In this document: positions 1,506-55,788 of the stretch, piece by piece | Layout of the letters: each line of letters opens with the position of its first letter | Position numbering within the stretch: the first letter of the stretch is position 1 | Assembly (NCBI GenBank): GCA_963768625.1 | Contig: CAVYIK010000003.1 | Coordinates: 326,715 to 390,714 of the forward strand | DNA from: an uncultured bacterium | GTDB taxonomy: Bacteria; Patescibacteriota; Minisyncoccia; UBA6257; 2-01-FULL-56-20 | Direction of reading: 5' to 3' | Length of the DNA stretch: 64,000 nt | The notes under the pieces: generated by a model | What the model was told of the DNA's origin: nothing | Seen by the model: the letters and a program-made list of their open reading frames with translations, nothing else | Databases searched by the model: none | Translations under genes and position numbers: made by a program

Positions 1506-2587
1506 TTATGTCCGCTCCAGAAGGATGCGGAGCTCCGCCGGGTTCAGCGAATAGAGTTCGGCGTTCTCAAGCGTGATCTCTTTGTTCTTCACGAGATTCA
1601 CGAGCGAGCGGTTCAGCGTCACCATGCCTTCCTGCAAGCACGTCTCGATCACAAGGTCGATCTGGTAGGTTTTCCGCTCGCGGATGAGGTTCCGGATGGC
1701 GGGGTTCACGATCATGATCTCCATCGCGGGAATGCGGCCGCCGGAGATGCGCGGGCAGGAGCCGCTCGGAAACGATCGCGACGAGCGTCGCGGCGAGCTG
1801 GGACGTCACCTGCCCCTGCTGTTCGGCCGGGAATGAATCGATGATGCGGTCGATGGTCTGCGAGGCGGAGTTCGTGTGGAGCGTGGAGAGCACCAAGTGG
1901 CCGGTCTCCGCCGCCGTCATCGCGGTGGCGATGGAAACTGCGTCGCGCATCTCGCCGATCATGACGACGTCCGGGTCCTGCCGCAGCACGGTGCGCAGCG
2001 CGGCGTGGAAGCTCGTGGTGTCGCTCCCCACTTCGCGCTGGGAGACGATGCACTTGTCCTGCGTGAAAAGATATTCCACCGGGTCTTCGATCGTAATAAT
2101 ATGGTCGGAGCGCGTGTGGTTCATCTCGTCCAGGATCGCGGCGAGCGTCGATGATTTTCCGTGCCCGGCCGGACCCACGACGAGGATGAATCCCTGCGAG
2201 AGCTTGGCGAAATCGTGAAGGAGCGGCGGAAGGTTCAGCTCTTCGATGGTCTTGATGCGCGCGGGCACGAGGCGCAGCGCCGCCGCGAGATAGCCGCGCT
2301 GGAAATAGACGTTCACGCGGAAGCGCGCCTTGTCCTCAAAGCTGTAGGCAAAGTCAATCTGCCGCTGGGTGATGAGCTTTGCCTTCTGTTCGCGGCGTGA
2401 TCGAGCTCGCCAACGATGCCCTCCGCCGATTTCCGGCGTCATGATCGGCTCCTTCTGGAGCGGCACAAGCACGCCGTCGATGCGCAAGCGTCGGCCGCCG
2501 GCCGACCGCAATGTGCAGGTCGGAAGCATTCTGCTTCGCGCACGCCGTCAGCAAGTCGTTCAGTTTTTGTTTATAATCTTCCGCCAT
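1506..2587 (-). pseudogene. pilT: twitching-motility ATPase PilT, frame broken at least 2-3 times
   Basis: N-terminal piece 2354..2587 (ASDLHIAVG), core in 1567..2529 (Walker A GPAGHGKSST, DPDVVMIGEMRD, LSTLHTNSA) and C-terminal piece 1506..1724 lie in different frames. Confidence 0.85.
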
Positions 2588-2600
2588 GGATTTGATTTTA

Positions 2601-4337
2601 TCACACTTCCTCGGTTTCCCGTATCACCTCCTCTATAGAAGTGATTCCGTCGAGCGCTTTCATGACGCCATCCTGCCGCAAGCGTGACCATCCCCTGCGT
2701 TTCGCCTCCGCGGTGATCTTCTGGGTGGTGCGCTGCCGCTCGCGATAATCTCCTCCAATGCCGGCGTCATCCGGAACACTTCGTAAATCGGCGGTGCGGT
2801 CCACGATCCCCTTGCCCTTGCAGGTGTTGCAGCCTTTGGTATGCCAGATCTTATAGGGCTTTCGGTATTTCGAAGTGATTCCGGCTTCAACTCCCTCAAG
2901 TGCGCGTACTGATCAACTTCTGGAGTTCCGGCGACGCCGTCTTCCTGGAACCTGCAGTCGGGACAGATCTGCCCGATCAGGCGCTGCGCCATCATCAGAT
3001 TGAGCGGACACGGGAAGGAGGAACGGTTCCACCTTCATATCAATGAGGCGCGGGATGACGCCTGCGGCATTGTTCGTGTGGAGGGTGGAAAGCACGATGT
3101 GGCCGGTGAGTGCCGCCTGCACGGCAAGCCCCGCCGTTTCGTTGTCGCGAATCTCGCCGACCATCACGACGTCAGGGTCCTGCCGCAGGATCTGCCGCAG
3201 GCCCGAAGCGAAATCATAGCCGATCTCCGGATGCACCTGCGACTGGTTCACGCCCGCGACGAAATATTCCACCGGGTCTTCCAGGGTCACGATGTTCACG
3301 TCCTCCTTGTTCAGCTTTTGCAAGAAAAGCATAGAGTGTGGTCGTTTTCCCGGAACCGGTGGGCCCGGTGACGAGCACCATGCCGAACGGCTTCTCGAGC
3401 CCCGCCTTGACGCTTCCAGGTTGCCGTAGCGGAGCGGAAGGTTCTCAAAGTCTTTGAGGCCGGTCGCGGGGTCGAGCACGCGGATGCGCCACCTTCTCGC
3501 CGAGCGGCGTCGGGAAGGTCGCGACGCGGAAATCGATGTCGCGGTCAAAGATCTTCGCGCGGAAGCGGCCGTCCTGCGGGATGCGTGTTCTCGTCGATCT
3601 TCAAATTTGAAATGACCTTCACGCGCGAAACGATCGGCTGCGCAAGCTCTAGCGGCAAGCGACGCCACCTGGTGCAGGTCGCCCTCGTTCCGGAAGCGGA
3701 TGCGCAGCGAATTCTGCTGCGGTTCGATATGGATGTCCGACGCCTTCGAGAGCACCGCCTCGCGGAAGGTGTCCGCGACGATCTTGATCATCGGCGCTTC
3801 TTCGTCGCTCTCGCCTGCCTTCCAAGGCTGATCGAGCTGCTGCGCGCGCCTCCCCTCCTTTTACGTTCGAGCGACTGCACCGCCTTCGCGATCTCCGTCC
3901 GATACGGCGAATATTTTTTCAGCACTGCCTCCCAATCGCCGTAAGAAATAAGATAGACGCCGAGGTTCAAATGGTTCTGCCGCGCGACGAACTTCAGCGC
4001 TTCCTGCGCTTTCGGGTCGTCCGGATGGACCATGCCGACGATGAGAAGATTGTCCTCGAGCGCGATCGGGATCGCCTCGTAGGTGCGCGCCGTCTCCTCC
4101 GGGATAAGTTCAAAAAGCTTCGTCATTGACGTCGGCCGGCGAAACTTTTTTATAGGGAACCTTGAGGAGCGCGCTCTTGAGCTCCGCGATCTTCACGTCA
4201 TCCACCGAGCGCTGTTTCGCAATGATCGCCTCTACGGATTCGCCGGCAACGAGGGCATCGCGCTTCAGTCGGGCCGCAAATTGAGCGTCCACAAGCCCGT
4301 GTGATTGCATTTGTGCGAGAAGTTCGTCGGAGGTCAT
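2601..4337 (-). pseudogene. pilB: type IV pilus assembly ATPase PilB (GspE family), many frame breaks
   Basis: Five ORF pieces in alternating frames (4110..4337, 3788..4126, 2913..3791, 2660..2995, 2601..2804). Motifs include LEDPVEY, DPDVVMVGEIRD, LSTLHTNNA and CPDC. Walker A VTGPTGSGKTTTLY is readable only in an alternate frame around 3340-3385. Confidence 0.85.
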
Positions 4338-5939: not shown

Positions 5940-6989
5940 TTATATAAATTCTTTCATACCGAGTCCCAAGGCTACGCTCATCACCGGATTTAGTTCTGCG
6001 ACGAGCGGCTCGATCTCGGAGGCGTACTCGAACCGGAGGAAAGGCGCCGCCTTTACGACCGGCAACGCGAACTCACGTTCACAATACTTCTCGATGCCGA
6101 GGAGGTTCGCGCCGCCGCCCGAAAGCACTACCCGCTCCACCTTCCGCGCCGCGGGGAATTGCTGGGCGTAGACGAACTGCGCTTTCTTCACCTCACTAAT
6201 TATAGCATCTAAAAACGGTAGCATTATTGTGGACAATTCATAGTTCGGGCCGGTCCCTATGATCCCCCGCTCCTTCTTGAGCTCCTCCGCGCGCAGCGGG
6301 TTCACCCCCAGGCTTGAGGCCAGCGCTTGCGTGAGCGAGGCGGAAGCAAAGTCGCTCTGCGAATTCCAGACGAGCTGGCCTTGTTCCAGGAAAACGATGT
6401 TCGTGGACCGGCTGCCGATGTCGACGACGAGCGTGGGCGTGGGGTCCCCGCCGAAGATCCGCGCGATGCTCAAGCTCTCGATCTCGAGCGCGCGGAGCAC
6501 GAGCCCTGCCGCCTTGAACATCCGCTGGTATTTCTCTATCTGCTCCTTCGGGACGGAGATGAGGAGTATTTTCTGATGGGCGAATCCCCGGTCGTCCTCG
6601 TACTCCCCGACCTTCAGCCAGTCAAGTGCCACCTCGGAGAGCGGCAACGGCACATATTGCTTTGCCTGGTAGACCATCGCCTTTTCCACCTCCTTCGGAT
6701 CCATCTGCGGGAAATCGAGCGCGGTCGTAAAAACGGAGAAGGGCGGGAGCGAGGCAACCGCAAGATTGGTGCTCGTCTTCATTTCTTTCGTGATCGCCTT
6801 CAGAAGCTCCACGATGTCCGACTCGAAAATCTTCAAACTGCTCGTTTGGAGCGCCTGGTTCGCGCGCGAAAGATAGCTGCTTGATTCCAAAAGGCCGTAG
6901 TTCACGACCTGTGGCCGCTGCTTGCCGCCTCTTACTTCGACCACCTTGATGGAGGTCGTGCCAATGTCGACACCAAGATAGTTCGCCAT
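5940..6989 (-). CDS. pilM: type IV pilus assembly protein PilM (actin-like ATPase)
   Basis: Intact 349-aa ORF. N-terminal phosphate-1 motif LGVDIGTTSIKVVEV and an actin/FtsA-like fold signature (VVDIGSRSTNIV, VVLSGGGANLLGI). Confidence 0.85.
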   Translation of the reverse strand: MANYLGVDIGTTSIKVVEVRGGKQRPQVVNYGLLESSSYLSRANQALQTSSLKIFESDIVELLKAITKEMKTSTNLAVASLPPFSVFTTALDFPQMDPKEVEKAMVYQAKQYVPLPLSEVALDWLKVGEYEDDRGFAHQKILLISVPKEQIEKYQRMFKAAGLVLRALEIESLSIARIFGGDPTPTLVVDIGSRSTNIVFLEQGQLVWNSQSDFASASLTQALASSLGVNPLRAEELKKERGIIGTGPNYELSTIMLPFLDAIISEVKKAQFVYAQQFPAARKVERVVLSGGGANLLGIEKYCEREFALPVVKAAPFLRFEYASEIEPLVAELNPVMSVALGLGMKEFI

Positions 6990-7042
6990 GTTTTAATGAT
7001 TTTTTGTGCTGTTTTTCATCCCGAATACAGTATCATCATAAC

Positions 7043-7741
7043 ATGAATTTTGGATTCCTCACTTCGATTTTCTTCCCCCGGCGCTGCCTTGCTTGCGGCA
7101 CGGCAGTGCGCGAGGGGACGCTCTGCGAACCCTGCCGCGCCGGGATCGCGATCCGCCGGACGCTCTTCTGCGGACAATGCGGCAGTGGCATCGCGACTGG
7201 CGCAGGCATCACGGCAAGCGCCTGCCATCCCGCCTTCCCCTATGTTCTTGGTGCTGCGGCACGCTACGAGGATAAAGCGGTCTCGGCGCTCATCCAGGCG
7301 CTCAAATTCCGGGGCAGGAAAGCCGCTGCGGCGTCGCTCGCGTCCATTGCGACGGAATATCTTCTCCCGTTCAAGACATCTTTCGCAAGCTATACCATTC
7401 TGCCGATACCCCTTTCCCGCGAGCGCGGGCGCAAACGCGGCTTCAACCAATCGGAGCTTATCGCCCGGCCGCTGGCCGAAACTCTCGGTCTGCCCTGCGA
7501 CACGCAATGCCTTATGCGGATAAAACATACAAAACCCCAGACGGATACGAAAAGCGCCGCGGAACGCAGGGAGAACATCCGCGGCTGCTTCGCGGTCGCT
7601 TCCCCTTCTGTGGCCCGGGGGCGGAATATCATTTTAGTTGATGACGTAAGCACCTCCGGCGCGACGTTCCTTGAGGCAGCCCGGACGCTCAAAGCTGCAG
7701 CGGCGGGGACGATCGTTGCCTTTGCCGTTGCAAAAGCATAA
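7043..7741 (+). CDS. comF: ComF family protein (phosphoribosyltransferase domain)
   Basis: N-terminal CxxC...CxxC zinc-finger-like region and a C-terminal PRTase motif NIILVDDVSTSGATF. ATG at 7043 chosen over the ORF-track start. Confidence 0.8.
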   Translation: MNFGFLTSIFFPRRCLACGTAVREGTLCEPCRAGIAIRRTLFCGQCGSGIATGAGITASACHPAFPYVLGAAARYEDKAVSALIQALKFRGRKAAAASLASIATEYLLPFKTSFASYTILPIPLSRERGRKRGFNQSELIARPLAETLGLPCDTQCLMRIKHTKPQTDTKSAAERRENIRGCFAVASPSVARGRNIILVDDVSTSGATFLEAARTLKAAAAGTIVAFAVAKA

Positions 7742-8348: not shown

Positions 8349-9407
8349 ATGCTGCTGCCAGCGAAAACGTCCAACAAGATGACGCCGTTCAAGATGGCGT
8401 GGTGGAAACACCTCGGCGTCGCAGGCGTCTTGAGCGTCGCGGTGCTGTGCCTAATAAGCTTCGCGATCGGATGGATCCTTCCTCCCCCTACCGTCCCCGA
8501 GGTAACCCCGCGGCCGCTCCGCGCAACCGGTTATGCCTTCATCAGTCCTCTCCTTTCGTGCAATTTCAACGCGCTGAAGGTCATCCCCGAAGCCCAGACG
8601 ATCAGCGATGATATCACGAAAGTTATTCAGCAACACGAGCAAGCGGGGGACATTACGAAGGCCTCGACGTTCTTCGGGGACTTCGCAACGAGCGCCTGGT
8701 CCGACACATTCCAGAATGAGACCTACTATCCCTCCAGTATCACAAAGATCCCGATCATGATGGCGTATCTCGCGATGGCGGAATCCTCGAGCACGGTGCT
8801 TGATACGCCGATCACCTATCCCGCGGGGAGCTCCGACCTGAACGACGCCCAAGAAACCAAGCCCGAAGCATCGCTCGTCCCCGGCCAGACCTATACGGTG
8901 GAGGAACTTATCGAGCATATGATCAAATACTCGGACAATAATGCTGCAGCGCTCCTCTTTAACGCACTTGATCCCAATACGCTCCGCGAGGTCTATACCG
9001 AGCTCAACATTCCCATCAATCCCGACCCGACCGTTTCGAACCTTGATTTCATCACTCCGACGCAGGTCAGCATTCTTTTCCGCGTGCTCTATAATTCGAC
9101 CTATCTTTCGCGCGACGATTCCGAACGGGCGCTCGACCTCTTGAGCCAGACCACATTCACAGAAGGCCTCGTCGCCGGCGTTCCTACGGGGACTACCGTC
9201 TCTCACAAATTCGGCGTCGTGGGCATCGTGACGGACGGCGTAGAGACCGGGCGTGAGCTCCACGACTGCGGCATCGTCTATGCCCCCGGCCACCCTTATA
9301 CGCTCTGCGTGATGACGCGCGGCACTTCAGGCTTGACGAGCATGGAAAGCGTCATCTCCGATATTTCGAAGACGGTCTATGAAGACGTTGAAAACGGAAA
9401 AGAATAA
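8349..9407 (+). CDS. class A beta-lactamase-like serine hydrolase, membrane anchored
   Basis: SxxK (SITK), SDN (YSDN) and a KTG-like HKFG motif in the expected order, with an N-terminal TM anchor. The start could be 8349, 8379 or 8394. Confidence 0.6.
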   Translation: MLLPAKTSNKMTPFKMAWWKHLGVAGVLSVAVLCLISFAIGWILPPPTVPEVTPRPLRATGYAFISPLLSCNFNALKVIPEAQTISDDITKVIQQHEQAGDITKASTFFGDFATSAWSDTFQNETYYPSSITKIPIMMAYLAMAESSSTVLDTPITYPAGSSDLNDAQETKPEASLVPGQTYTVEELIEHMIKYSDNNAAALLFNALDPNTLREVYTELNIPINPDPTVSNLDFITPTQVSILFRVLYNSTYLSRDDSERALDLLSQTTFTEGLVAGVPTGTTVSHKFGVVGIVTDGVETGRELHDCGIVYAPGHPYTLCVMTRGTSGLTSMESVISDISKTVYEDVENGKE

Positions 9408-9428
9408 CGTATAATAGGAAGCGCAGTT

Positions 9429-9500
9429 GCGGGTATCGTATAGCGGCTATTATGTAACCTTGCCAAGGTTAAGATACGGGTTCGACTCCCGTTACCCGCT
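9429..9500 (+). tRNA. tRNA-Gly (anticodon GCC)
   Basis: Acceptor gcgggta/tacccgc, anticodon stem taacc/ggtta, loop ttGCCaa, T arm acggg-ttcgact-cccgt. Confidence 0.85.
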
Positions 9501-9505
9501 CAGCA

Positions 9506-9577
9506 GGCAGCAAGTAAGAAGCGCTTCGGGAAGAGTACTAAGAAGGGCTCTTCCCGAAGCGCTTCTTACTTGCTGCC
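9506..9577. repeat. long perfect hairpin H1 (30-bp stem, 12-nt loop tactaagaaggg)
   Basis: Left arm 9506..9535 is the exact reverse complement of right arm 9548..9577. Lies between tRNA-Gly and the converging sortase gene. Confidence 0.9.
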
Positions 9578-9611
9578 CGGTTGGCGCGATGACGGGAATC
9601 GAAGTTCCGCG

Positions 9612-12507: not shown

Positions 12508-13131
12508 CTATTGGCCGAAACCGCCGCCAGTGTTCGGCAATCCCGGAGTGACAGGGACCGTGACGACGGCGTTCGAAAGAACGTTTATCGCACAGGTCGT
12601 GACAAGGCCTCCGCTCATAACCGTCAAGGTCTTAAGGCCGATTGACGAGTAGTTCGCACTGAAGCCAGTGCCGTTCGGGTTCGCAATGGTAAGGTCCGGT
12701 GACGACCAGACGTACGCGCCATTACCTCCCGTAGCCGAAAGAGTAGCAGTCTGTCCCAATACGACATTCTGCGTCGCCGGATAACAGGCAAGGGCGTTCG
12801 TGGAAACCGCTCCCACGACGTTCACGTTGCATGTTGCCGCCTGCCCTGCGCTCGTTACCGTTATCGCGTAGACGCCGACGTTCGGATAACTGACCGCGAA
12901 CTGGGTGCCGCCCGAGTTCGTAACATTGAGGTTCGAACCGGACCAGAAATAGGTCCCAGTGCCGCCTAATGCGGTCAAGATCGCCGCCTGATTTACGTTC
13001 ACGGAAGACACGTTCACGCTACAGCTCAAGGGAGTGACCGTCTGCGCGAAACTCAATGCGCCGAGGCTCATCCCCGTAACCGTAAGAACGGTTACTAAAG
13101 ACAAGAGCAAATACTTTTGATTCGTTTTCAT
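12508..13131 (-). CDS. secreted two-repeat protein ending in an LPNTG sortase motif
   Basis: Signal peptide, two about 85-aa Cys-bracketed repeats, C-terminus ...PGLPNTGGGFGQ-stop. The sortase gene lies immediately downstream. Confidence 0.65.
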   Translation of the reverse strand: MKTNQKYLLLSLVTVLTVTGMSLGALSFAQTVTPLSCSVNVSSVNVNQAAILTALGGTGTYFWSGSNLNVTNSGGTQFAVSYPNVGVYAITVTSAGQAATCNVNVVGAVSTNALACYPATQNVVLGQTATLSATGGNGAYVWSSPDLTIANPNGTGFSANYSSIGLKTLTVMSGGLVTTCAINVLSNAVVTVPVTPGLPNTGGGFGQ

Positions 13132-13205: not shown

Positions 13206-13281
13206 CAGCCAGCCAGAGGAAGTGGCTTTGGAGAGAGTACTCGGAAGGGCTCTCTCCAAAGCCACTTCCTCTGGCTGGCTG
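13206..13281. repeat. long perfect hairpin H2 (32-bp stem, 12-nt loop tactcggaaggg)
   Basis: 13206..13237 is the exact reverse complement of 13250..13281. The apex AGAGTACTnnGAAGGGCTCT is shared with H1. Confidence 0.9.
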
Positions 13282-13520
13282 GTCGACGCGATGATGCGTG
13301 CACACTGCACGTCTTTTTTTATTTGACAATCCTGCATCGCTCTATTACAAAGAAGACAGCTCGTTGGGAAACGATCAACGAGAGAAGGGTTGCAACGATG
13401 GAAGCGATCAAGAAAAAGGTCTCGCTCGACATGTGGGCGCTGATCTTCGCAGCAAGCATCATACTTCTTGTCCTCGCGAACACGAAGATCCCATGGTGAA
13501 GGACTTTCAAGGAGGAAGGC

Positions 13521-14573
13521 GTGAAAAAGAATCTGTACGCCGCACTTAGGCTTGTGCCGGGAGTCCTGCTGCTTTTCGCCGTAGGATACGCCGGTAAGTT
13601 CCTGGAAAGAGCGGTGAACGGCTATACCAAGGGCCATCACATTACGTTCCCGAACATCGAGTACGTCCTCTGGGCGATCGTGATCGGCCTTATTGTAAGA
13701 AACACTGTTGGCCTCAACCGCTTCTTCGACCCCGGAGTACTGACCTACGAATTTTTCCTTAAGGTCGGGATCGTCCTTCTTGGCGCGCGTTTCCTTCTCG
13801 GCGACGTGCTCCGGCTGGGCGGGTTGAGCCTTGCGCTTGTCGTGATAGAGATCGCCGCGTCATTGCTTCTTATGACATGGCTCGGTCGGCTGTTCGGCCT
13901 CAAACCGAAGCTCACTAGTTTACTTGCGGTGGGCTCCGGGATCTGCGGCGTTTCGGCAATCATTGCGACACAAGGAGCAATCGACGCAGACGAAGAAGAT
14001 TCCTCGTATGCGATCGCGGCTATTCTTTCACTCGGGGCGTTGGCGCTTTTTACCTTTCCGGTGATCGGACACTTCCTGCATCTTGGAGGTAAAGCGTTCG
14101 GCCTCTGGGCGGGGCTTGGCGTTGATAACACCGCCGAAGCAGTGGCGACCGGCATGATCTACTCTGACGCAGCGGGTAAGGTAGCGACACTCGCAAAGAC
14201 CTGCCGCAATGCCATGATCGGCTTCGTTGTTCTCGGCTATGCCATCTACTGGGCAAAGCAAGGGATGGCGAAACAGATCAAGAACAAGAGCGCGTTCTTG
14301 TGGGAAAAATTTCCCAAGTTCGTGCTCGGATTCCTCGTGGTCTCGGCGCTCGCGAGCGCGCATGCGTTCGACAAGGCGCAACTCATAAGCTTGGCGAATG
14401 CTTCCCGCTGGGCATTCCTTCTCACCTTTGCCGGCGTCGGGCTCCGCACCGACTTCCGGGAAATGCGCAAGCAAGGCCTGCGGCCGTTCTTGGTCGGCGC
14501 TCTCGGAGAGGTCGGCATCGCTTTGATCACACTCGGCCTCGTTCTCGCGGCAAACCACTTCTTTGTTCTATAG
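13521..14573 (+). CDS. YeiH/UPF0324 family integral membrane protein (putative sulfate exporter family)
   Basis: Intact 350-aa polytopic ORF with the family-typical length and topology. Confidence 0.7.
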   Translation: MKKNLYAALRLVPGVLLLFAVGYAGKFLERAVNGYTKGHHITFPNIEYVLWAIVIGLIVRNTVGLNRFFDPGVLTYEFFLKVGIVLLGARFLLGDVLRLGGLSLALVVIEIAASLLLMTWLGRLFGLKPKLTSLLAVGSGICGVSAIIATQGAIDADEEDSSYAIAAILSLGALALFTFPVIGHFLHLGGKAFGLWAGLGVDNTAEAVATGMIYSDAAGKVATLAKTCRNAMIGFVVLGYAIYWAKQGMAKQIKNKSAFLWEKFPKFVLGFLVVSALASAHAFDKAQLISLANASRWAFLLTFAGVGLRTDFREMRKQGLRPFLVGALGEVGIALITLGLVLAANHFFVL

Positions 14574-37913: not shown

Positions 37914-40033
37914 CTACTGTAATTGCTTGATGGACATCCGGATCCTCCCGTCGTCGTCAACGCTGATGATTTTTGCCCGGACGAAATCACCCACCTTCAC
38001 GACGTCCTCCACTTTCTTTACAAAGCCCTGCTTGAGCTCCGAAACATGGATCATACCGTCCTTCCCGCCGCCCAAGTCCACGATCGCGCCGAATTCCAGC
38101 GTCTTTATCACATTCCCCTCTATAATCTCGCCCACTTTGAACTCCCGGGCAATACCCTTGATCTCCGCGACCGCGGCGTCCACCTTCTCGAGGTCCATGC
38201 CGGATACGAATACGCCGCCATCTTCGTCAATATCAATCCCCGCGAGAGCGTATTTTTCAATAAGGCCATTGATGATCTTCCCTCCGGGCCCGATGACCGC
38301 GCCGATCTTGTCGGTCGAGATCTTGAGCGTCCGGATCTTGGGCACGAAGGGCGACAACTTCTCGCGGTGCGTCGGAAGCACCTCTTTTATCACTTTCAAA
38401 ATCTCGAGCCGCGCCTTGCGCCCCTGCAGGAGCGTCTTTTCCACGATCTCAAGCGTGATGCCGTCCACTTTGACGTCCATCTGCACGCCCGTCACGCCGT
38501 CATCCGTGCCGGCCACTTTCAAGTCCATGTCGCCGTGGTGATCTTCGGGGCCCTGGATGTCGGTCAAAACTTTGTAATTATTTACATCCTTCATCATGAG
38601 CCCCATCGCGATGCCCGCCGCCGGTTTCTTGATCGGCACGCCAGCATCCATGAGCGACAAGGATGAAGCGCAGACGGTCGCCATGGAAGACGAACCGTTC
38701 GAAGACATGATCTCGGAGACGACGCGGATCGTGTAGGGGAACTCCTCTTTCGTGGGAATCAGCCGCTCAAGCGATTTCCGCGCAAGGTTGCCGTGGCCGA
38801 TCTCGCGGCGCCCGGGCCCCGGAACGTCCCCACTTCTCCCACCGAGAATGGCGGGAAATTATAGTGGAGCATGAAGCGCCGCTTGGTCGTCGTTTCCATT
38901 GTTTCGATCATCTGCTCCGCGCCGGGCGCCGCGAGCGTCGTTACGGCAAGCGCCTGGGTATTCCCGCGCACGAAGAGCGCCGAACCGTGCGTCCGCGAAA
39001 ACATCGCGACCTCGCCGTCCAATGCGCGCAGCTCGTCGAGCTTGCGCCCGTCCGGCCGCCGCTCTTTCGTAAGCGCCTCGCGATGCACGAGGTCGTTGAT
39101 CGCCTCCTCAAAGAGGAAATCTGCGCCCTTCCAATCCATTGTCTTCTCATGGGCACTTTCGCCCTTCGCCTCGCCCAATTCCTTAAGATGCAAAAAGAGT
39201 GCGGTCTTGAGCTCTCCGATGGCGCTCTGCTGTTCCATTTTATTGGGACGAAATACCGCCGCCTCCAACTTGTCGGTCAAATATGCGTTCACGGCCGCCT
39301 TTAGCTCTTCGGCCGGATCCGCGATCGTGAGCTTCGCTTTCTGCTTGCCGATCTCCTTCCGGATCTTTTCCTGGAACTCAACAAGTTTGTTCACCTCTTT
39401 CTGCGCCATCTCGAACCCATGCACAATATCTTTTTCCTGCGCGTCCAAACCGCCGAGCTCGATCATGTTGATGCGGTCCTTTGCACCGGAGAGGAAAGCA
39501 TCAAAGACCGGAGGGTTCTGGAGGACGTATGAATTGTCGGGGTTGAGCTTGAAGTCATTCCCTATTTGCGCCACGCGCACGCCCGCCACCGGTCCCGCCC
39601 ACGGGATATCCGAGATGAGGAGCGCCGTTGACGCGCCCAAAAGCCCCACAAATTCCGGATCGTTCTCCTCGTCGATCTGTAAAACGGTCACGACCACCTG
39701 GATCTCGTTCCGTACGCGATGGTCAAAAAGCGGCCGGATGGTGCGGTCAACGAGCCGGCCCGCGAGCACCGCTTCTTCAGAAGCGCGCCCTTCGCGGCGG
39801 ATGAACCGGCTGCCGATGATCTTTCCCGCAGCGTAAAATTTTTCTTCGTAATCAACCTTGAGCGGCAGGTAGTCGGTTGCTGCTTCCTTCCGCGACATGA
39901 CCGCGGTCGCAAGGACCACCGTCTCGCCGTATTTCGCGAGCACGGCCGCGTTCGCCTGCTCGGCGAGCGACGAAACTTCTATAGTGAGTGTTTTGCCGGC
40001 AACGTCAATCGAGAATTGTTTTTTCTTCAACAT
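37914..40033 (-). CDS. pnp: polyribonucleotide nucleotidyltransferase (PNPase), single 1-nt frame break
   Basis: N-terminal ORF 38759..40033 ends ...FPPFSVGEVGTFRGPG. The continuation RREIGHGNLARKSLERLIP...SEIMSSNGSSSMATVCASSL (KH and S1 domains follow) is in the frame of ORF 37914..38708. The shift maps to ggcccgggcgccgcg near 38812-38826. Confidence 0.9.
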
Positions 40034-40054: not shown

Positions 40055-40666
40055 TTATATGCGCGACTTCATAATGACCCGCGGGAGTTCTTCAATGTTG
40101 ATAAATTTATCCGCCACTTCCTGGATCTTGGACGATGCGCTCCGGCGGAACGCAGCCACTTCCACAAGGCGCCCAGCGCCCCATTTTAGATAATCGATAA
40201 GGGGAAGGAAGTCGCCGTCGCCCGTAACGAGGATGACGACATCAAGGAACGATGACATCCGGATCGCATCCACCGCCATGCCGACGTCCCAATCCGCCTT
40301 CTTCATGCCACCCGCGAAGATCTGCAAATCCTTCATGCGGAGCTCAAACCCGGCCTTCTCCAGGGCTTCAAAGAACGCCGCTTCGGAGGACAGCGTCTCG
40401 CCGGTCTCTTCGGAACGCGCGATACGCGGACGCGACAGAGCCGTCCGGCCGGCCTCGCCGCGCGGAGCGCCGTGCTGCGGTTCCACGCCTTCGCTTTTCA
40501 CGACGTAGGCAAGCGCCCGGATGAGCTGCCGGTCGCCCACGAGGTGTTTCATCAATTCCGCGTAGTTCACGCGGCCGTGATACAAGTTCTTCGCGGAGTG
40601 ATACAGGTTCTGTACGTCTACAAAAATCCCAACCCGGTGGTTGGAATATTCAGGTGCTTTCTTCAT
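40055..40666 (-). CDS. NYN-domain (LabA-like) protein
   Basis: VGIFVDVQNLYHSAK... and ...VILVTGDGDFLPLIDYL motifs. ATG overlaps the rpsO stop (TAATG). Confidence 0.7.
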   Translation of the reverse strand: MKKAPEYSNHRVGIFVDVQNLYHSAKNLYHGRVNYAELMKHLVGDRQLIRALAYVVKSEGVEPQHGAPRGEAGRTALSRPRIARSEETGETLSSEAAFFEALEKAGFELRMKDLQIFAGGMKKADWDVGMAVDAIRMSSFLDVVILVTGDGDFLPLIDYLKWGAGRLVEVAAFRRSASSKIQEVADKFINIEELPRVIMKSRI

Positions 40667-40932
40667 TATTTTTTAAGCTCGAGCTTCTTCACGAGTTTGT
40701 CGTACGCGGCCGGCTCGTTCTTGCGGACATACGCCAAAAGCTTCCGGCGGTTCGAGACCATCTTCAAAAGCCCGCGGCGCGAGTGGTTGTCCTTCGGATT
40801 CTTCTTGAGATGCGCCGCGAGGGCGTCGATCTGGCGCGACAACATGCCGCTCTGCACTTCCGCCGAGCCGGTATCTTTGTCGTGCTTCCGATGCTCCACA
40901 ATGATGCGGGCCTTTACACGTTTACTAAGCAT
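40666..40932 (-). CDS. rpsO: 30S ribosomal protein S15
   Basis: HRKHDKDTGSAEVQSGMLSRQIDALAAHLKKNPKDNHSRRGLLKMVSNRRKLLAY. Confidence 0.9.
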   Translation of the reverse strand: MLSKRVKARIIVEHRKHDKDTGSAEVQSGMLSRQIDALAAHLKKNPKDNHSRRGLLKMVSNRRKLLAYVRKNEPAAYDKLVKKLELKK

Positions 40933-41020
40933 ATTTGCATTATATCCCACGAACGGGAAAACCGCAACCCCGCCGTCCGTTTTACGACAGATGCTCTATA
41001 ATAAGGGTGAGCCAGAAAAT

Positions 41021-41911
41021 ATGCCCGAGACCGAGGTCCAAAAATTATTGCGCGACTACCTTAACTACCTGGAGATAGAAAAAAACCGGTCGCCCAAGAC
41101 GCGCGAGAACTACGAACATTATCTTGAGGAATTTTTGAAGTCCTCCGGCGTGCGCGCCCCGAAGGACATTACGGACGCCGCCGTCCGCGAGTTCCGCATG
41201 GCGCTCGCCCGCCGCGGCATCAAGAAGGTAACGCAGAGCTATTACGTCATTGCTATTCGTAACTTCCTCAAATATCTTGCGAAGCGCGACATAAAATCGC
41301 TTGCGGCGGAGAAGATCGAGCTCCCAAAGACGCCCTCGCGACAGATAGAGATACTTGAATACGGCGACCTTGAGCGGCTCCTTGCGGCGCCCAAGGGCAA
41401 CGACCTTCGCTCGCTCCGTGACAAGGCGATCCTTGAGACGTTTTTCTCCACCGGCCTGCGACTTGCGGAATTATGCGCCATGGATCGCCGCCTTGATCTC
41501 AAACGCGGCGAGGTCACTGTGCGCGGGAAGGGAGATAAGCTGCGCGTGGTCTTTGTGGCCGACTCGGCGCGCGCCGCCATACAAAAATATCTCGCGAAGC
41601 GCGGCGACGCGGAGGAAGCGCTCTTTGTAAGCTTGGACAAGGCCGGGAAAGTGATCGGGCGCATAACGCCCCGCGCCGTCCAGCGCCTCGTTGCGCTTCG
41701 GGCGCGTGAGGCCGGCATCGCAAAGCGCGTCCACGCGCACGAACTTCGCCACAGTTTCGCTACGGACCTCTTGATGAACGGCGCAGACCTTCGCTCGGTG
41801 CAGGAACTCCTCGGCCACTCGAACATCTCCACCACGCAGGTCTATACTCATCTCACGAACAAAGCGCTCCGCGAAGTCCACCAGGCGTTCCACGGGAAGA
41901 GAAGAAAGTAG
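41021..41911 (+). CDS. tyrosine recombinase XerC/XerD family
   Basis: N-terminal SAM-like domain (YLNYLEIEKNRSPKTRENY) and catalytic R...HxLRHSFAT...LLGH..ISTTQVYTH. Confidence 0.85.
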   Translation: MPETEVQKLLRDYLNYLEIEKNRSPKTRENYEHYLEEFLKSSGVRAPKDITDAAVREFRMALARRGIKKVTQSYYVIAIRNFLKYLAKRDIKSLAAEKIELPKTPSRQIEILEYGDLERLLAAPKGNDLRSLRDKAILETFFSTGLRLAELCAMDRRLDLKRGEVTVRGKGDKLRVVFVADSARAAIQKYLAKRGDAEEALFVSLDKAGKVIGRITPRAVQRLVALRAREAGIAKRVHAHELRHSFATDLLMNGADLRSVQELLGHSNISTTQVYTHLTNKALREVHQAFHGKRRK

Positions 41912-42560: not shown

Positions 42561-42637
42561 GAATAACGATGATAGGTTTTTTATCGTCGACTTTGTGATT
42601 ACACGATACCACAGATTCGAACCCGTAACCAGGTGTG

Positions 42638-42718
42638 TGCTGGGGGTGGGACTTGAACCCACAAGCCTTGCGGCGCTGGCTCCTAAAGCCAGTGCGTTTG
42701 CCATTTCGCCACCCCAGC
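42638..42718 (-). tRNA. tRNA-Leu (anticodon UAG)
   Basis: Acceptor gctgggg/ccccagc, anticodon stem ctggc/gccag, loop ttTAGga, long variable arm, T arm gtggg-ttcaagt-cccac. Confidence 0.85.
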
Positions 42719-44791: not shown

Positions 44792-45169
44792 CTAGCAACC
44801 GACGGTAACGTTCCCGCCGAGGAAGCTCGCCGCAATGAGCGGAATGCCACGCGCAACGAGCGCGATGACAACTGCGATCGCCGCGTAGAGCAACGTCGCG
44901 CCCGCCTTCTTCACCTTCTCCGGGTCGCCTGCGGCGGTCAGATACCTGAACGCAGCAATAAGGACGAAAACGACCGCAGCGATGATGAGAAGATAGAATA
45001 TCCAGTCAACCACCGCACAGATCACCGCGGTAACGTCACCCGTCGACTGTATCGCCGAGTTCGGCGCTGCACCGGTCGGGGGCTCCGCAACCGCAAAAGC
45101 GAAGAGGGGCAACGCAAGCGCAATGACCGGCGCACCCAGCTCCTTCGCGAATTCCTTTATTTTTCTCAT
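44792..45169 (-). CDS. TrbC/VirB2-like (T4SS-pilin-like) small membrane protein, paralog A
   Basis: Signal peptide, two TM helices and a loop motif FRYLTAAGDPEKVKKAGATLLYAAIAVVIAL. Cys near the C-terminus. Confidence 0.6.
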   Translation of the reverse strand: MRKIKEFAKELGAPVIALALPLFAFAVAEPPTGAAPNSAIQSTGDVTAVICAVVDWIFYLLIIAAVVFVLIAAFRYLTAAGDPEKVKKAGATLLYAAIAVVIALVARGIPLIAASFLGGNVTVGC

Positions 45170-45234
45170 AGATTTTGTAAGGCTTTCGACCTTTCAATAA
45201 TTGCTAGTTCAGTATACCTTTTGCAATGGAATGG

Positions 45235-45672
45235 TTAAAGGCAGACGTCTATATTACCGCCTCCACTCAAGAAGTCGCTTACTACGGCGGGGACGCCTGC
45301 GGCAACGAGCGCCACAACGACCGCAATCGCCGCATAGAGGAGGGTCTTATTGGCGCTCTGGACGCGTTCGGGCTCGCCCTGCGCCGTCGCATATTTATAG
45401 CCTCCGACGAAGAACATGATTATCGAAAAGATAATGAGCCCCCAGAAGATCCAAACAACAACCCCGCAAACGATTGCCGTGATACTTCCCGACGTGGAAA
45501 TGGCGGCTGGTATGTCACCATAGTCCAGATTGTTCGGCATAGGGAACGCGAACGCCCTTGAGGTCAAGGCGAACGAGCCCGCTAGGGAGCCGGTTATTAT
45601 GACCGCAAAGAGAGATGCTCGCTGCGCCCACGGAGCCAACCCCCACAATATTGTTTTTAAGGCTTTTTTCAT
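45235..45672 (-). CDS. TrbC/VirB2-like small membrane protein, paralog B
   Basis: YKYATAQGEPERVQSANKTLLYAAIAVVVAL. Start moved to MKKALK (45672) to avoid overlapping paralog C. Confidence 0.6.
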   Translation of the reverse strand: MKKALKTILWGLAPWAQRASLFAVIITGSLAGSFALTSRAFAFPMPNNLDYGDIPAAISTSGSITAIVCGVVVWIFWGLIIFSIIMFFVGGYKYATAQGEPERVQSANKTLLYAAIAVVVALVAAGVPAVVSDFLSGGGNIDVCL

Positions 45673-45691
45673 ATTATTCACTATACCATAT

Positions 45692-46081
45692 TCAAGGACA
45701 GACGTTATTAACCCCATTTGTTGCCCCCAAGAAGCTCCCGATGAGGAGCGGCACTCCTTTCGCGACAAGCGCTATGACGATCGCGATCGCGGCGTAGAGG
45801 AGCGTCTTGTTCGCCCCGCTTACCCTTTCCGCGTCGCCCCCTGAGGTCGCATATTTGTAGCCGCCGACGAAGAACATCGCAATGCCGAGGACAACGAGCC
45901 CCCAGAACATCCAAACCAATATGCCGCAGAAGATAGCGACAACAGCGGACGGGCTCGAGAGGAGATTCGTGGGCGCGGGAGTGATGCCCGAGTCCCCGAG
46001 CGCCAATGATGCCACAGAAAGGATCGCGGCCGCACTTATCGCGGGACCAAGTTTATAAAAATAACTCTGGATATGTTTCAT
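45692..46081 (-). CDS. TrbC/VirB2-like small membrane protein, paralog C
   Basis: YKYATSGGDAERVSGANKTLLYAAIAIVIAL. Confidence 0.6.
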   Translation of the reverse strand: MKHIQSYFYKLGPAISAAAILSVASLALGDSGITPAPTNLLSSPSAVVAIFCGILVWMFWGLVVLGIAMFFVGGYKYATSGGDAERVSGANKTLLYAAIAIVIALVAKGVPLLIGSFLGATNGVNNVCP

Positions 46082-51516: not shown

Positions 51517-51678
51517 ATGGGATAATTTTATCAAAAAACGGACCAAATTGCAAACGAAAAATCGTTAAAAAATCATTGAAAAAACCTCGCGCGCGCGCCG
51601 CCTGAACCCTCCATATGGCATGCGGGTTGCGCGGCAAGACCTTGCCAAAAAACGCTCCCCCCTCTATAATCTCCCGTA

Positions 51679-52779
51679 ATGCCTCAAATAGAAGAAAAGA
51701 ACGCCGACGCGGCGATGATTGCCCAGATCCTGAAGACGGAGCTCTCGTCCGCCGACTGGCCTAAAGAAGGGAGCGTCATTGAAGTGTCGCTCATGAAAAA
51801 ACTTCCCCGCAAGGCCTATTTTGATGTTGGCCGTTTCGGCACGGGCATCGTCTACGGGACCGAACTGCAGAACGCGAAGGAAGCGGTCCGCAAACTGAGC
51901 CCGGGCGACAAGCTCCAGGCGAAGATCGTAGCACTCGACGGCGAAGAGGGGTGTATTGAGCTTTCGCTCTCCGAGGCCGGGAAACAAAAGCTTTGGCAGC
52001 AGGCGAAGGAGCTCGCAGAAGCGGGCGAGGTGGTAAAAGCGAAGATCATGGGCGCGAACGCGGGCGGGCTTATGGCCTCGATCTCCGAAGAGCTCAAGGC
52101 CTTCCTCCCCGTTTCCCAGCTTTCCCTTGAACATTATCCGAAGGTACCGGATGGCGACCGCGTGAAGATCGCGGACGAACTCAAGAAATTCATCGGTGAA
52201 GAACTTTCGGTGAAGATCATTGACGTGAACCCGCGCACCGCGAAGATCATTGTCTCCGAGCGGGAGGTGCTCTCCGCGAACGTGAAGGAGCTCCTGAACG
52301 CCTACACGCTGGGCCAAGTAGTTGACTGTATCGTCTCCGGCGTCGCCGATTTCGGCGTCTTCGTCCGCTTCACCGACAACCCCCAGATCGAAGGCATGAT
52401 CCACATTTCCGAGCTGGACTATAAACTGATCGACAACCCGAAGGACCTCGTAAAGGTGAACGACGAGCTCAAAGCGAAGATCGTGGACATAAAGGGAGGC
52501 CGCGTGTTCCTGTCCCTGAAGGCGCTCAAGGAAGATCCGTGGGCAAATCTCGGCGACCGCTTCAAGCCCGGCGAAACCGTCCAGGGCCGCGTATACAAGT
52601 TCAATCCGTTCGGCGCCATCATCGCGCTTGAGGGTGATTTCCAAGGCGTGGTGCACATCTCCGAGTTCGGCGGGCAAACCGAAATGAAGAAAGCGCTCAT
52701 CGTCGGCGAGACGTATCCCTTCGTCATCGACTCCGTGAAGCTGGAGGAAAAGAGAATAATGCTGAAGGTGAAGAGATAG
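51679..52779 (+). CDS. rpsA: 30S ribosomal protein S1 (four S1 domains)
   Basis: Four repeats of the S1 OB-fold pattern (G.V..V....a.V.l..g..G.ihiSE). Confidence 0.85.
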   Translation: MPQIEEKNADAAMIAQILKTELSSADWPKEGSVIEVSLMKKLPRKAYFDVGRFGTGIVYGTELQNAKEAVRKLSPGDKLQAKIVALDGEEGCIELSLSEAGKQKLWQQAKELAEAGEVVKAKIMGANAGGLMASISEELKAFLPVSQLSLEHYPKVPDGDRVKIADELKKFIGEELSVKIIDVNPRTAKIIVSEREVLSANVKELLNAYTLGQVVDCIVSGVADFGVFVRFTDNPQIEGMIHISELDYKLIDNPKDLVKVNDELKAKIVDIKGGRVFLSLKALKEDPWANLGDRFKPGETVQGRVYKFNPFGAIIALEGDFQGVVHISEFGGQTEMKKALIVGETYPFVIDSVKLEEKRIMLKVKR

Positions 52780-52826: not shown

Positions 52827-53104
52827 TGCCGCGGGGGTGAATCGAACACCCGACGCCAGCCTCTTCCGAAGCTGAATTTGGACTATATCATCTTCCTGAC
52901 TCCAGGAAGCCGGGCGCTTGTGCGAGATTATTGTTGGGACTCACTCGCTAGTCTCTACGCCTTCTTCGCAACCTTAAGCCCTGCGAAGCTTGGTTCGGGA
53001 TTGTCCAAAAGGAGTTCCCCCGAGTTCACCCAGTTATTCAATCCGCATTGCTGCGGAAGGCCCCGAAGATCCAGGGCTGCGCTCTGCCACTGAGCTACCG
53101 CGGC
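52827..53104 (-). tRNA. tRNA-Phe (anticodon GAA) interrupted by a 206-nt intron in the anticodon loop
   Basis: Exon 1, 53104..53073: gccgcgg-ta-gctc-agtggca-gagc-g-cagcc-ct. Exon 2, 52866..52827: GAAga-ggctg-gcgtc-gggtg-ttcgatt-caccc-ccgcggc-a. The joined exons give a canonical cloverleaf with loop cuGAAga. Confidence 0.8.
52867..53072 (-). ncRNA. group I intron (IC3-like, tRNA type)
   Basis: P1: exon gcccU pairs with intron ggggc, with a U.G wobble at the splice site. P10: intron ucuuc pairs with exon 2 gaaga. The intron ends in G. Core strings ccaagcttcg, gtagagactag and atatagtcc resemble the Azoarcus and Anabaena tRNA introns as I recall them. Confidence 0.75.
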
Positions 53105-53106: not shown

Positions 53107-53805
53107 TCAAACTTTCCCCTTTATGCCCTCAATCCACCCCATAATTCTATGAAACAGATTGGTGTTATTTATTCTAATCTGCACGATTCCATAAGGCAAG
53201 CGATTAAACGGCTTTTTGCCCATACTAGACTTACTGATGCCGAGATATGTTTTCGTAAAGTTTCCTCTGGGAATTTGAAGTGTTTCGCTCCAATATTTTA
53301 AAACACTTTCCTCGTTAAGATGTTGGAAGATTCTCACTCCTACCTTTATTTTTCCTCGGTCCACTCCGCATATCTCAACCAAAAACTTTATAAACATTTT
53401 TAAAAGTTGCGGATCTGCGTTCGTGAGAGAGACGGGGTGATTGGTCACCTCCACCCCATTCTTTCTCTTAGCTCTTTTATATCCTTCTGCCCAATACAGC
53501 GAAGCTCCTATGAGCAATAATTCCTCTTTCGAAATATTCACTATTTGATTTTTCGCCTCCGTTTGAATATCGAATTTGCGCCGTACCGCAAGGATTGTCT
53601 GACGTTTATTTCTCTTAAGCAGCCCAGCCAATGATCTTTCTCGGGTCCGGCTCGTCAAAACCCCTCTCGCAGCATCAGAAAGAACCACGTTCTTCAACCA
53701 TGACGAGAGGGTAGATTTTGGTATCCCGCCAAGGGAGTTTCGGATTTCCGAATAACTTCTTCCGGTGAGACGTAGGCGAATAGCTGCTTGTTTGTCGCTC
53801 CGCAT
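53107..53805 (-). CDS. AT-rich ORF: N-terminal HTH plus LAGLIDADG-like homing-endonuclease-like domain
   Basis: N-terminal resolvase-type HTH (GRSYSEIRNSLGGIPKSTLSSWLK). LLLIGASLYWAEGYK resembles a LAGLIDADG motif, followed by a beta-sheet-like region. Ends 3 nt from the tRNA-Phe 5' end. Confidence 0.45.
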   Translation of the reverse strand: MRSDKQAAIRLRLTGRSYSEIRNSLGGIPKSTLSSWLKNVVLSDAARGVLTSRTRERSLAGLLKRNKRQTILAVRRKFDIQTEAKNQIVNISKEELLLIGASLYWAEGYKRAKRKNGVEVTNHPVSLTNADPQLLKMFIKFLVEICGVDRGKIKVGVRIFQHLNEESVLKYWSETLQIPRGNFTKTYLGISKSSMGKKPFNRLPYGIVQIRINNTNLFHRIMGWIEGIKGKV

Positions 53806-55311: not shown

Positions 55312-55319
55312 TTTTTACA

Positions 55320-55360: not shown

Positions 55361-55375
55361 CATAAACAAGAATTT

Positions 55376-55771: not shown

Positions 55772-55788
55772 AAGTCGCTTCCCAAGAG

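Follow-up and report, generated by a model that had tools for sequence, protein, structure and literature searches.

Long hairpins with an invariant apex form a family in CPR bacteria and may be REP-like dispersed palindromes

Two long, perfectly paired hairpins in the genome of an uncultured bacterium raise the question of what a palindrome does whose centre is fixed and whose stem is not. The hairpins, H1 and H2, lie in a stretch of 64,000 nucleotides (referred to as the window) of contig CAVYIK010000003.1 (assembly GCA_963768625.1, positions 326,715 to 390,714 of the forward strand), from a member of the Minisyncoccia. A first-pass annotation, made from the letters of the window, had grouped them with a third hairpin, H3, as a structure under selection with a conserved apex. 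We found that H1 and H2 belong to a real family which, as far as the searches reach, is confined to a clade of the Candidate Phyla Radiation (CPR), or Patescibacteria (Paceibacteria/Minisyncoccia). Its modular conservation, its covarying stems and its placement at gene ends were all observed. On an even call, we read H1 and H2 as dispersed palindromes resembling the repetitive extragenic palindromic (REP) elements, in which the transcribed hairpin would mark or protect RNA ends, the identity of the arms would be kept in the DNA, and the apex would be bound by a protein. The two hairpins are as follows.

9506-9577, plus strand: H1; 5' arm 9506-9535, loop 9536-9547 (TACTAAGAAGGG), 3' arm 9548-9577; 30 Watson-Crick pairs, perfect.
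13206-13281, plus strand: H2; 5' arm 13206-13237, loop 13238-13249 (TACTCGGAAGGG), 3' arm 13250-13281; 32 pairs, perfect.

H1, H2, and H3 were the three longest inverted repeats in the window, and all three were recovered with the positions and stem lengths given in the first-pass annotation. Their fold z-scores against shuffled controls were -9.1, -10.2, and -5.5, respectively. The apex said to be common to H1 and H2, GAGTACTNNGAAGGGCTC, matched exactly at these two sites and nowhere else in the window. A similar right flank had been proposed as well, and the exact motif GGTYGRCGCGATGAYG was indeed present in the window only at 9579-9594 and 13281-13296, the latter starting one position away from the coordinate first assigned to it. 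The claim that the two stems are completely different did not hold. When the arms were compared in the register set from the apex, 18 of 30 positions were identical (p ~5e-4), and the right flanks aligned in the same register. Therefore, H1 and H2 are diverged copies of one element. Each of the 12 differences between the arms was matched on the opposite arm, and only the basal 12-19 bp of the stem were unrelated family-wide.

An apex pattern of 18 bases was scanned over genome contigs, with one genome per species, and 18 stretches were obtained. Fourteen were located in CPR metagenome-assembled genomes (MAGs), namely Minisyncoccia SPRUCE 393 (ten), SPRUCE 501, MFD03726.bin.c.4, and Paceibacterota SMAG_U5659 (three), and their stems were either perfect over 26-32 bp or longer with one or two mismatches. 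The remaining four, from other phyla, had stems of only 4-6 bp and are chance matches. A scan of peat metagenome contigs added 19 more stretches from the same kind of organisms. The family suspected from the window comprises 26 distinct copies, which come from several CPR genomes and peat contigs and are almost all of Paceibacteria/Minisyncoccia origin. One genome of approximately 0.77 Mb holds at least 13 of them. Moreover, all but one of the perfect hairpins of at least 18 bp in approximately 330 kb of related sequence have this loop.

A covariance model, R1, was built from 17 copies. Members scored 59.6-91 bits, with at least 69 bits for all except the imperfect L001/L029 copy, and H1 gave the best R1 match (91.1 bits; H2, 87.4 bits). 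The model added copies with altered closing pairs (CGAG, ACAG, or TGAG). We defined the family by the loop TACT-NN-GAAGGG, the conserved apical stem, a pairing of at least 26 bp, and an R1 score well above those of the controls; H1 and H2 show each of these features, and H3 falls outside the definition. The closest relative of H1 was L002, which is located 3' of a tRNA-Arg gene in Minisyncoccia SPRUCE 393 and has 77% arm identity to H1, with all differences compensated. No real viral copy was found when IMG/VR was scanned with the apex pattern, which gave four stemless chance matches, and a blastn search of H1 against phage and plasmid records returned nothing. An Rfam 15 scan of the window gave no family for the hairpins at the gathering threshold, the matches obtained being tRNAs and a group I intron, and E-value scans around H2 (both strands) and L010 returned only sub-threshold miRNA-precursor models, which are noise. 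Searches of the literature on these bacteria turned up no description of the element.

The anatomy of the element was compared over the 26 distinct copies. The loop is 12 nt long, TACT-MR-GAAGGG, and varies at positions 5 and 6 only (AA, CA, or CG). Counted from the apex, arm positions 1-4 had a mean pairwise identity of 88% (44% when shuffled), positions 5-14 had 58% (28%), and positions 15-26 had 35.6% (32.4%). This profile therefore delimits a conserved module of approximately 40 nt, which consists of the loop and approximately 14 bp of apical stem, 5'-G-N-T-T-Y-G-R-R-A-G-A-G. The basal stem of 12-19 bp is effectively unrelated across the copies and is always paired. The stems were 26-34 bp long (median, 29.5) and the whole elements 64-80 bp (typically about 75), with a predicted stability of -32 to -71 kcal/mol and a purine content of 69% in the 5' arm. 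ViennaRNA predictions for H1 and H2 suggest an apex in which U.G, A/G, C-G, and U-A would close an NNGA tetraloop, at positions that are invariant.

Several known motifs were considered for this loop, as leads only. Its 3' half, AAGAAGGGC, may resemble the lambda nutL boxB, GAAGAAGGGC, and TACTMRGA may resemble the nick sequence of the pMV158 family, TACTACGA; neither fits the whole loop. Nor does the circovirus nonanucleotide, the sarcin-ricin loop, the signal recognition particle RNA apex, or the CsrA site. A restriction site, AGTACT, was considered and rejected, because it is not under-represented (4 observed versus 3.3 expected).

Compensatory change, which had been put forward as a check on the hairpins, was evident throughout the stem. 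In the 17-sequence alignment, 25 of the 30 stem pairs had changed on both sides, and 95.1% of the cells were paired, compared to 66% in shuffles and 38-55% with slid partners. None of 500 shuffles matched the observed values on four of five covariation measures, and one did so on the fifth. Over the 26 copies, 660 of the 676 innermost cells were Watson-Crick pairs. The structure proposed to be under selection thus passed the test of further copies and of covariation.

The manner of this covariation is a separate matter. Identity from copy to copy was 46% (stem positions 5-26), far below the identity from arm to arm, which was approximately 100%. G.U pairs took up 3 of 516 cells (0.6%) in sense copies and were as rare as any other mismatch. 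Double changes among related copies were of the transversion type in 193 cases and of the transition type in 186. Furthermore, L002 and L014, the copies at tRNA-Arg paralogues, differed by a 1-bp indel that was compensated on both arms. The rarity of G.U, the transversion-type double changes, and the compensated indel are unusual for compensatory evolution at the RNA level and fit arm-to-arm copying in the DNA. By template switching, quasipalindromes are known to be made perfect (PMC7202029). In the antisense copies L006a and L011a, which are orthologous, the loop differed solely at a variable position, and the stems were only about half identical (by eye). The constraint on the loop is therefore independent of reading in the sense direction, and we read its constancy in antisense copies as a sign that it is recognised in the DNA or constrained by the way the element is made. 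Local GC skew on the loop-sense strand was positive in 18 of the 26 copies, which does not separate an influence of replication from one of transcription.

We then considered where the copies sit. Seven of the 26 were directly 3' of a tRNA in the sense orientation, with a gap of 0-5 nt, the tRNAs being Gly-GCC (H1), Gly-CCC, Arg-CCG, Arg-CCT, Ile, Glu, and Pro; two further copies abutted a tRNA 3' end in the antisense orientation. Approximately eight copies began 0-18 nt from a stop codon, and approximately ten faced the 3' end of a converging gene, five of them with the upstream gene also terminating at the hairpin. Given this placement after tRNAs, after stop codons, and facing convergent ends, most copies therefore mark the end of a transcription unit. 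By eye, a -35/-10 match came directly after the hairpin in several cases, among them L024, L035, L009, and H2; the promoter scan, which covered the window stretch only, did not report the one after H2.

The spacer between the 23S and 5S rRNA genes was filled by two copies, one per orientation, in L006, L011, L020, and L028. The rRNA operon of L006 runs in a single direction and is arranged as follows.

End at about 6298: 3' segment of the 23S rRNA gene.
6206-6277: hairpin B, sense.
6114-6185: hairpin A, antisense.
5986-6101: 5S rRNA gene.

With this order, RNA polymerase must read through both hairpins to reach the 5S gene. An insertion of approximately 690 nt breaks up the same 23S rRNA gene (L006:6298-8000, minus strand; Minisyncoccia SPRUCE 393) near model position 2650 and encodes a LAGLIDADG-type homing endonuclease (open reading frame [ORF] 6696-7139; LDGDGS motif, by eye).

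The copies were not fixed at their sites. At orthologous tRNA-Gly, tRNA-Pro, and tRNA-Arg genes, the hairpin was present in some genomes and absent in others; for tRNA-Gly(GCC), the L008 orthologue has no hairpin and the L017 orthologue has a long hairpin with a different apex. Taken as a whole, hairpins at orthologous loci appear to be gained, lost, and turned over. Long hairpins with different loops were also seen at L017:7520-7591 (minus strand), L043:857-923, and L049:3458-3516, with stems of 20-30 bp and purine-rich 5' arms. Two of these occupy positions of family members, behind tRNA-Gly(GCC) in L017 and upstream of the YeiH-like gene in L043, which suggests sister families or replacement of the apex.

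The surroundings of H1 and H2 in the window are listed below.

9388..9415, plus strand: promoter-like site TTGAAA-16-TATAAT, from a consensus scan (11 of 12 matches; prediction only).
9429..9501, plus strand: tRNA-Gly(GCC), CCA not encoded (ARAGORN; Rfam tRNA, 60.2 bits).
9578..9605, plus strand: right flank of H1, with the motif GGTTGGCGCGATGACG common with H2, then GGGAATCGAA.
12508-13131, minus strand: LPXTG-protein gene, left of H2 and divergently transcribed; H2 is 75 nt upstream of it.
13281..13296, plus strand: right-flank motif of H2, GGTCGACGCGATGATG, homologous to 9579-9594.
13296..13320, plus strand: terminator-like canonical hairpin with a 7-bp stem and a T7 run (tail CTTTTTTTAT), directly after H2.
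13521-14573, plus strand: YeiH-like gene (PF03601), right of H2.

H1 starts 5 nt past the 3' end of tRNA-Gly(GCC), and the predicted promoter would drive both as a single transcript. H2 is located in a divergent intergenic region. Since a separate canonical terminator stands at 13296-13320, we argue that H2 is not the terminator of its own site, and it may be a stand-alone small RNA. Neither site was occupied by the family in the relatives compared. Three relatives with a YeiH-like gene (80-83% identity) had no family hairpin at the locus orthologous to that of H2, one of them, L043, having the different long hairpin there, and four relatives had no hairpin at the locus of H1, which was traced by a sortase at 55-65% identity; the window encodes a class F sortase. 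This sortase and the typical gene content of the window assign the organism to Paceibacterota/Patescibacteria.

An independent assembly, L046 (Logan contig ERR11594402_110276), encodes a protein identical to the YeiH-like protein of the window and begins approximately 270 nt upstream of the gene. The start of this contig corresponds to about position 13252 of the window, that is, inside H2. A perfect palindrome probably breaks short-read assemblies, and copies may therefore be under-counted in metagenomes. The YeiH-like transporter itself had 72-75% identity to proteins with named relatives mainly among the Acidobacteria (Sulfotelmatobacter, Terriglobales), with only four closer matches (80-100%), a pattern that suggests horizontal acquisition. 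Upstream of the gene, the window has a short ORF at 13399-13499; the orthologues with upstream sequence, in L042, L043, and L044, have one likewise (34 aa there, MEAxKKK...IPW), together with the promoter-like box TTGACAATC.

The flank of H1 has a further property. The segment GGGAATCGAA is an imperfect inverted copy of the T-arm of tRNA-Gly (TTCGATTCCCGT versus TTCGACTCCCGT), and the flank can prolong the helix by pairing with the 3' half of the tRNA (minimum free energy structure; duplex, -32.7 kcal/mol; z, -2.9). Inverted T-arm-like sequences also followed the hairpins in L009, L010, and L014 (z, -2.2 to -5.2). A GC-rich conserved RNA of 120-140 nt with several covarying hairpins, GGGAATCGAAC ... 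GAGCAGYRAGATTCC, was noted at L009:6475-6615, L010:3661-3825, and L049:3290-3440 (minus strand). It is always beside a long hairpin, which in L049 has a different loop. The RNA begins with the inverted T-arm sequence in L009 and L010 and ends with GAGCAGYRAGATTCC, which is followed in these two by a direct repeat of 18-20 nt of the 3' end of the preceding tRNA. No Rfam match and no viral copy of this RNA were found, and it may represent either a very small integrated element or an insertion into the T-loop region of a tRNA. The flank of H1 may be a remnant of the 120-140-nt RNA, a convergent tRNA remnant, or a product of outward growth of the palindrome. An attL/attR scheme was considered for all tRNA-linked copies and rejected, because the direct repeat of the tRNA 3' end was seen in L009 and L010 only (two of seven).

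How would such an element work? The first-pass annotation had offered a protein-binding hairpin, a REP-like or transposon-like repeat, and a recombination site. We narrowed these to a REP-like element at transcript 3' ends with its pairing kept in the DNA, although the choice among them is not settled. We propose that the element would be co-transcribed with the upstream gene and would fold into a very stable hairpin. This hairpin would define the RNA 3' end or protect it against 3' exonucleases; the window has a gene for one of these, polynucleotide phosphorylase (PNPase), which a hairpin of this kind would block. A further role of the hairpin would be to keep adjacent RNAs or transcription units apart, as REP elements, bacterial interspersed mosaic elements (BIMEs), and the RNase III hairpins of phage T7 do. 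The arms would be held identical in the DNA, either through intrastrand template switching, with one arm serving as template for the other, or through selection on both strands, and the apex would be the binding site of a putative protein that maintains or spreads the element.

Several points weigh against this proposal. The copy number is modest, at least 13 per genome of approximately 0.77 Mb and two per 64-kb window. No agent of mobility came to light in the window: Pfam scans of the approximately 60 ORFs of the window found no transposase, HUH/RAYT protein, or RNase III, though they did find PNPase, RecA, FtsK, and one tyrosine recombinase, and no target-site duplications were seen at the copies (by eye). 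H2 misfits a role at 3' ends, being upstream of a divergently transcribed gene and followed by a canonical terminator of its own. The purine/pyrimidine asymmetry of the arms and the excess of one orientation (approximately ten sense-only versus three to five antisense-only copies) favour a constraint at the RNA level. In the antisense-transcribed copies L011a and L033, the mismatches on the loop-sense strand were 6 A.C versus 1 G.T, and A.C becomes G.U in the transcript. Pairing restricted to Watson-Crick pairs could also be explained by selection for hairpins that work on both strands between convergent genes. Finally, every functional step of the proposal is one that we infer.

The most serious rival, which we hold to be possible though doubtful, is a purely RNA-level signal for processing or regulation. 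On this account, the duplex of 26-34 bp is an RNase III-type substrate that splits tRNA, rRNA, and mRNA units, the copies arose by ordinary duplication, and the structured apex might be read by an RNA-binding protein, by analogy with Rnt1p and AGNN loops or with lambda N and boxB. Copies between co-transcribed stable RNAs agree with it (23S-hairpin-hairpin-5S, and tRNA-hairpin-structured RNA in L009 and L010), as do the sense-orientation bias with its purine-rich 5' arm, the predicted fold of the apex, and the mismatches of antisense-transcribed copies and of H3, which become G.U in the transcript. However, the scarcity of G.U in sense copies and the double changes, half of which are of the transversion type, are unusual for compensatory evolution of an RNA. 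Also against it are the loop, which stays invariant in antisense-transcribed copies, where that of the RNA would read CCCUUCUKAGUA, the dispersal to many unrelated loci, and the presence or absence at orthologous sites. No RNase III gene was present within the window, which is uninformative for the remaining genome. The perfect palindromy without G.T pairs, the compensated indels, and the conservation of the apex in both orientations would instead suit a DNA-level site, with transcription being incidental. Such a site would have a 40-bp core of two 14-bp inverted arms and an asymmetric 12-bp centre, and would serve recombination or nicking, either lox/dif-like or as a loop nick site for an HUH Rep, relaxase, or transposase on an extruded or single-stranded hairpin. 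The association with tRNA 3' ends, which are classic integration targets, points the same way, and in L009 and L010 the hairpin and the 120-140-nt RNA are bracketed by the tRNA 3'-end repeat like attL/attR. We nevertheless consider this improbable, because no recombinase or HUH gene adjoins any copy examined (the sole integrase of the window, 40472-41911, is 27 kb from H2 and lies by tRNA-Leu), the direct repeat accompanies two of the seven tRNA-linked copies only, and no copy was found on phage or plasmid records or viral contigs. Moreover, it leaves the pairing of the 12-19 bp beyond the conserved arms and the purine bias of one arm unexplained. A related idea, which is unlikely but a little less so, is that a dedicated enzyme recognises or nicks the apex, opens the hairpin, and rewrites one arm using the other, like the parvoviral Rep at inverted terminal repeats. 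Perfect stems free of G.T pairs, compensated indels, hypervariable bases, and a loop that is independent of orientation would all be explained in this way. The family would then be a self-homogenising hairpin DNA element seeding itself at the 3' ends of tRNAs and other genes, which would make it a novel class of DNA, mobile or maintained, in CPR bacteria.

Two further explanations carry very little weight. Small guide RNA precursors would have hypervariable, spacer-like stems and an apex as the processing handle, comparable to tandem interspaced guide RNA (TIGR) arrays, CRISPR-like systems, or the tRNA-miRNA (TMER) hairpins that RNase Z releases in herpesviruses. Perfect stems of approximately 30 bp that vary around a constant loop, frequently just 3' of a tRNA, fit this description, and parasitic bacteria have TIGR stem-loop arrays whose palindromic stems are variable (PMC12045711). 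We judge it highly improbable all the same: the copies are single and dispersed with no tandem arrays, the loop lacks box C/D motifs and spacers, no Nop-domain (Tas) gene was detected in the window, and the basal arms of H1 and H2 matched nothing exactly in IMG/VR and nothing else in the window at up to three mismatches. The arms are, in addition, mutually complementary, and so encode one sequence rather than two spacers. Ordinary long intrinsic terminators, or recent duplicates, with chance similarity of the loops would be the simplest account, and gene 3'-end locations and U-rich tracts after some low-GC copies (e.g., GUCUUUUGUU in L009, by eye) would suit it. It is refuted and barely credible. 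The loop is common to 26 distinct copies in several genomes, with stems that differ and covary, whereas chance apex matches have stems of 4-6 bp only; H1 and H2 have no U tract, and a separate canonical terminator follows H2; and RNA polymerase has to pass through the copies of the 23S-5S spacer. The census of the family and the counts of covarying pairs rule out the chance scenario, and the first-pass annotation was right that the hairpins are not mere long terminators. Nor is the family a general terminator, because H1 and H2 lack a U tract, canonical terminators are present in the window (one after H2 and one after the DGR reverse-transcriptase gene described below), there are two copies per approximately 60 genes, and the spacer copies are read through.

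The third hairpin, H3, had been included in the family from the beginning. Its R1 scores were 31.3 bits (minus strand) and 29.9 bits (plus strand), compared to at most 28 bits for chance apex matches and viral contigs and to 59.6-91 bits for members. With a score at the level of the chance controls, its membership is therefore not established, and the inclusion could not be upheld. H3 may be a truncated or degenerate relative. Its basal stem, GCAAGGCAAAAGGG, resembles GCAAGGCAAAAAGGG of L002 and L014 (by eye), and its lone mismatch is a G.U pair on the folD strand. It overlaps the folD stop codon (minus strand) and is 155 nt past the reverse-transcriptase ORF of a diversity-generating retroelement (DGR), after that gene's own terminator. 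The DGR is complete and spans 54262-57312. H3 and the DGR are arranged as follows.

54262-55311: DGR target gene, with the variable repeat at 55107-55239.
55642-55775: DGR template repeat.
55823-56176, minus strand: bAvd gene (Pfam bAvd, 3.8e-18).
56189-57312: DGR reverse transcriptase.
57468-57517: H3; arms 57468-57489 and 57496-57517, 22 bp with one mismatch, 6-nt loop.

All 23 differences between the template and variable repeats were at template adenines. A link of the hairpin family to the DGR was considered and rejected, since the DGR is real but H1 and H2 are not near any reverse transcriptase, template repeat, or variable repeat. Inside the reverse-transcriptase gene, an 18-unit (GA) dinucleotide run at 56742-56777 divides the gene into two overlapping ORFs in different frames (56189-56779 and 56695-57312). 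This run may act as an on/off switch prone to slippage or may be an artefact of assembly.

Other features of the window were recorded alongside. The group I intron match at 52857-53082 (minus strand) scored 51.9 bits against an Rfam threshold of 50, and is flanked by ORFs without a Pfam match (51664-52677 and 53107-53805). The PNPase gene appears split at 37914-40033 (minus strand), with the RNase_PH domains at 38759-40033 and the KH and S1 domains at 37914-38708. A gene for a PilB-type ATPase likewise appears split at 1567-4126 (minus strand), with MshEN at 3788-4126 and T2SSE pieces at 2913-3791 and 1567-2529. Both could be due to frameshifts, inserted elements, or real splits. The tyrosine recombinase of 479 aa (Phage_integrase domain; 40472-41911, plus strand) is near tRNA-Leu(TAG) at 42637-42718 (minus strand), and beyond it are ORFs without a Pfam match and two T4SS-pilin genes (44792-45768); this region may be an integrated element.

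Non-coding DNA is scarce in the tiny genomes of CPR/Patescibacteria, and the ending and processing of their RNAs are almost uncharted. Here, an element of approximately 75 bp is kept perfect at many gene ends, including an rRNA operon and sites behind tRNAs, with an invariant centre and stems that turn over. This combination points to a specific protein partner and to a process at the DNA level that keeps the arms identical. The family offers a pattern and a covariance model for annotation, a natural system of palindrome maintenance, and a set of predicted RNA ends.

Some known elements can be set aside by comparison. A canonical intrinsic terminator, with its short GC-rich stem and a U tract right behind it, does not describe the hairpins, as H1 is followed by CGGTTGGCG and H2 by GTCGACGCG, and the terminator scan reported neither of them, only 13296-13320 after H2. 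A miniature inverted-repeat transposable element was rejected, because there is no consistent flanking direct repeat (by eye) and the basal stem halves are unrelated between copies. The attC sites of integrons are imperfect hairpins that carry conserved R and L boxes basally, together with extrahelical bases, and lie in cassette arrays beside intI; the CPR family has its conservation at the apex rather than the base, and its stems are perfect. TIGR arrays, known from parasitic bacteria and phages, likewise combine stems that vary yet stay palindromic with a loop that is better conserved; their units are in tandem beside a Tas (Nop-domain) gene and have box C/D motifs and two spacers in the loop (PMC12045711). 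They were rejected as well, because the CPR copies are single and dispersed, the fixed 12-nt loop has no RUGAUGA or CUGA, and the window lacks a detected Nop-domain gene.

Closer likenesses were found among dispersed repeats and processing signals. The Correia elements of Neisseria, the ERIC elements of enterobacteria, and the Rickettsia palindromic elements are also non-coding repeats that form long RNA hairpins when co-transcribed with their neighbours. Their hairpins can be RNase III substrates or modulate mRNA stability. However, they are bounded by conserved terminal inverted repeats and target-site duplications, with a unique region inside, and their copies are more alike than their arms, which is the opposite of the CPR family. 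The RNase III hairpins of T7 and the stems of rRNA operons are long duplexes between cistrons or stable RNAs and match the copies in the 23S-5S spacer and next to tRNAs. T7 RNase III sites have internal loops and no conserved apex. Template switching at quasipalindromes fits the absent G.T pairs, the transversion-type double changes, and the compensated indel, but it is a mutational mechanism rather than an element family, and explains neither the invariant loop nor the placement at gene ends.

The REP elements remain the nearest comparison. A REP is an imperfect palindrome of 20-40 bp with an unpaired GTAG or CGTC tag at one end, and REPs have been hypothesised to act in mRNA stabilisation or termination (PMC3733652). 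Like REPs and BIMEs, the CPR hairpins are dispersed extragenic palindromes and plausibly transcribed ones, and their placement is the same, mainly downstream of coding regions and between unidirectional or convergent genes. They differ in being 64-80 bp long with perfect stems of 26-34 bp, outside the size and imperfection of a REP, and in conserving the centre instead of an end tag; GTAG/CGTC tetranucleotides were seen near the ends in 4 of the 26 copies, in either orientation and at inconsistent positions, which looks like chance. Furthermore, REP copies resemble one another, whereas the basal stems of the CPR family are unrelated across copies. REPs are of high copy number, and some are linked to RAYT transposases; at least 13 distinct copies were counted in one genome of approximately 0.77 Mb, and no Y1_Tnp or other HUH domain was present among the approximately 60 ORFs of the window. 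The family would function most like REP/BIME elements but without their size, imperfection, and end tag, and its architecture, an invariant centre on a hypervariable and perfectly paired base, is unusual.

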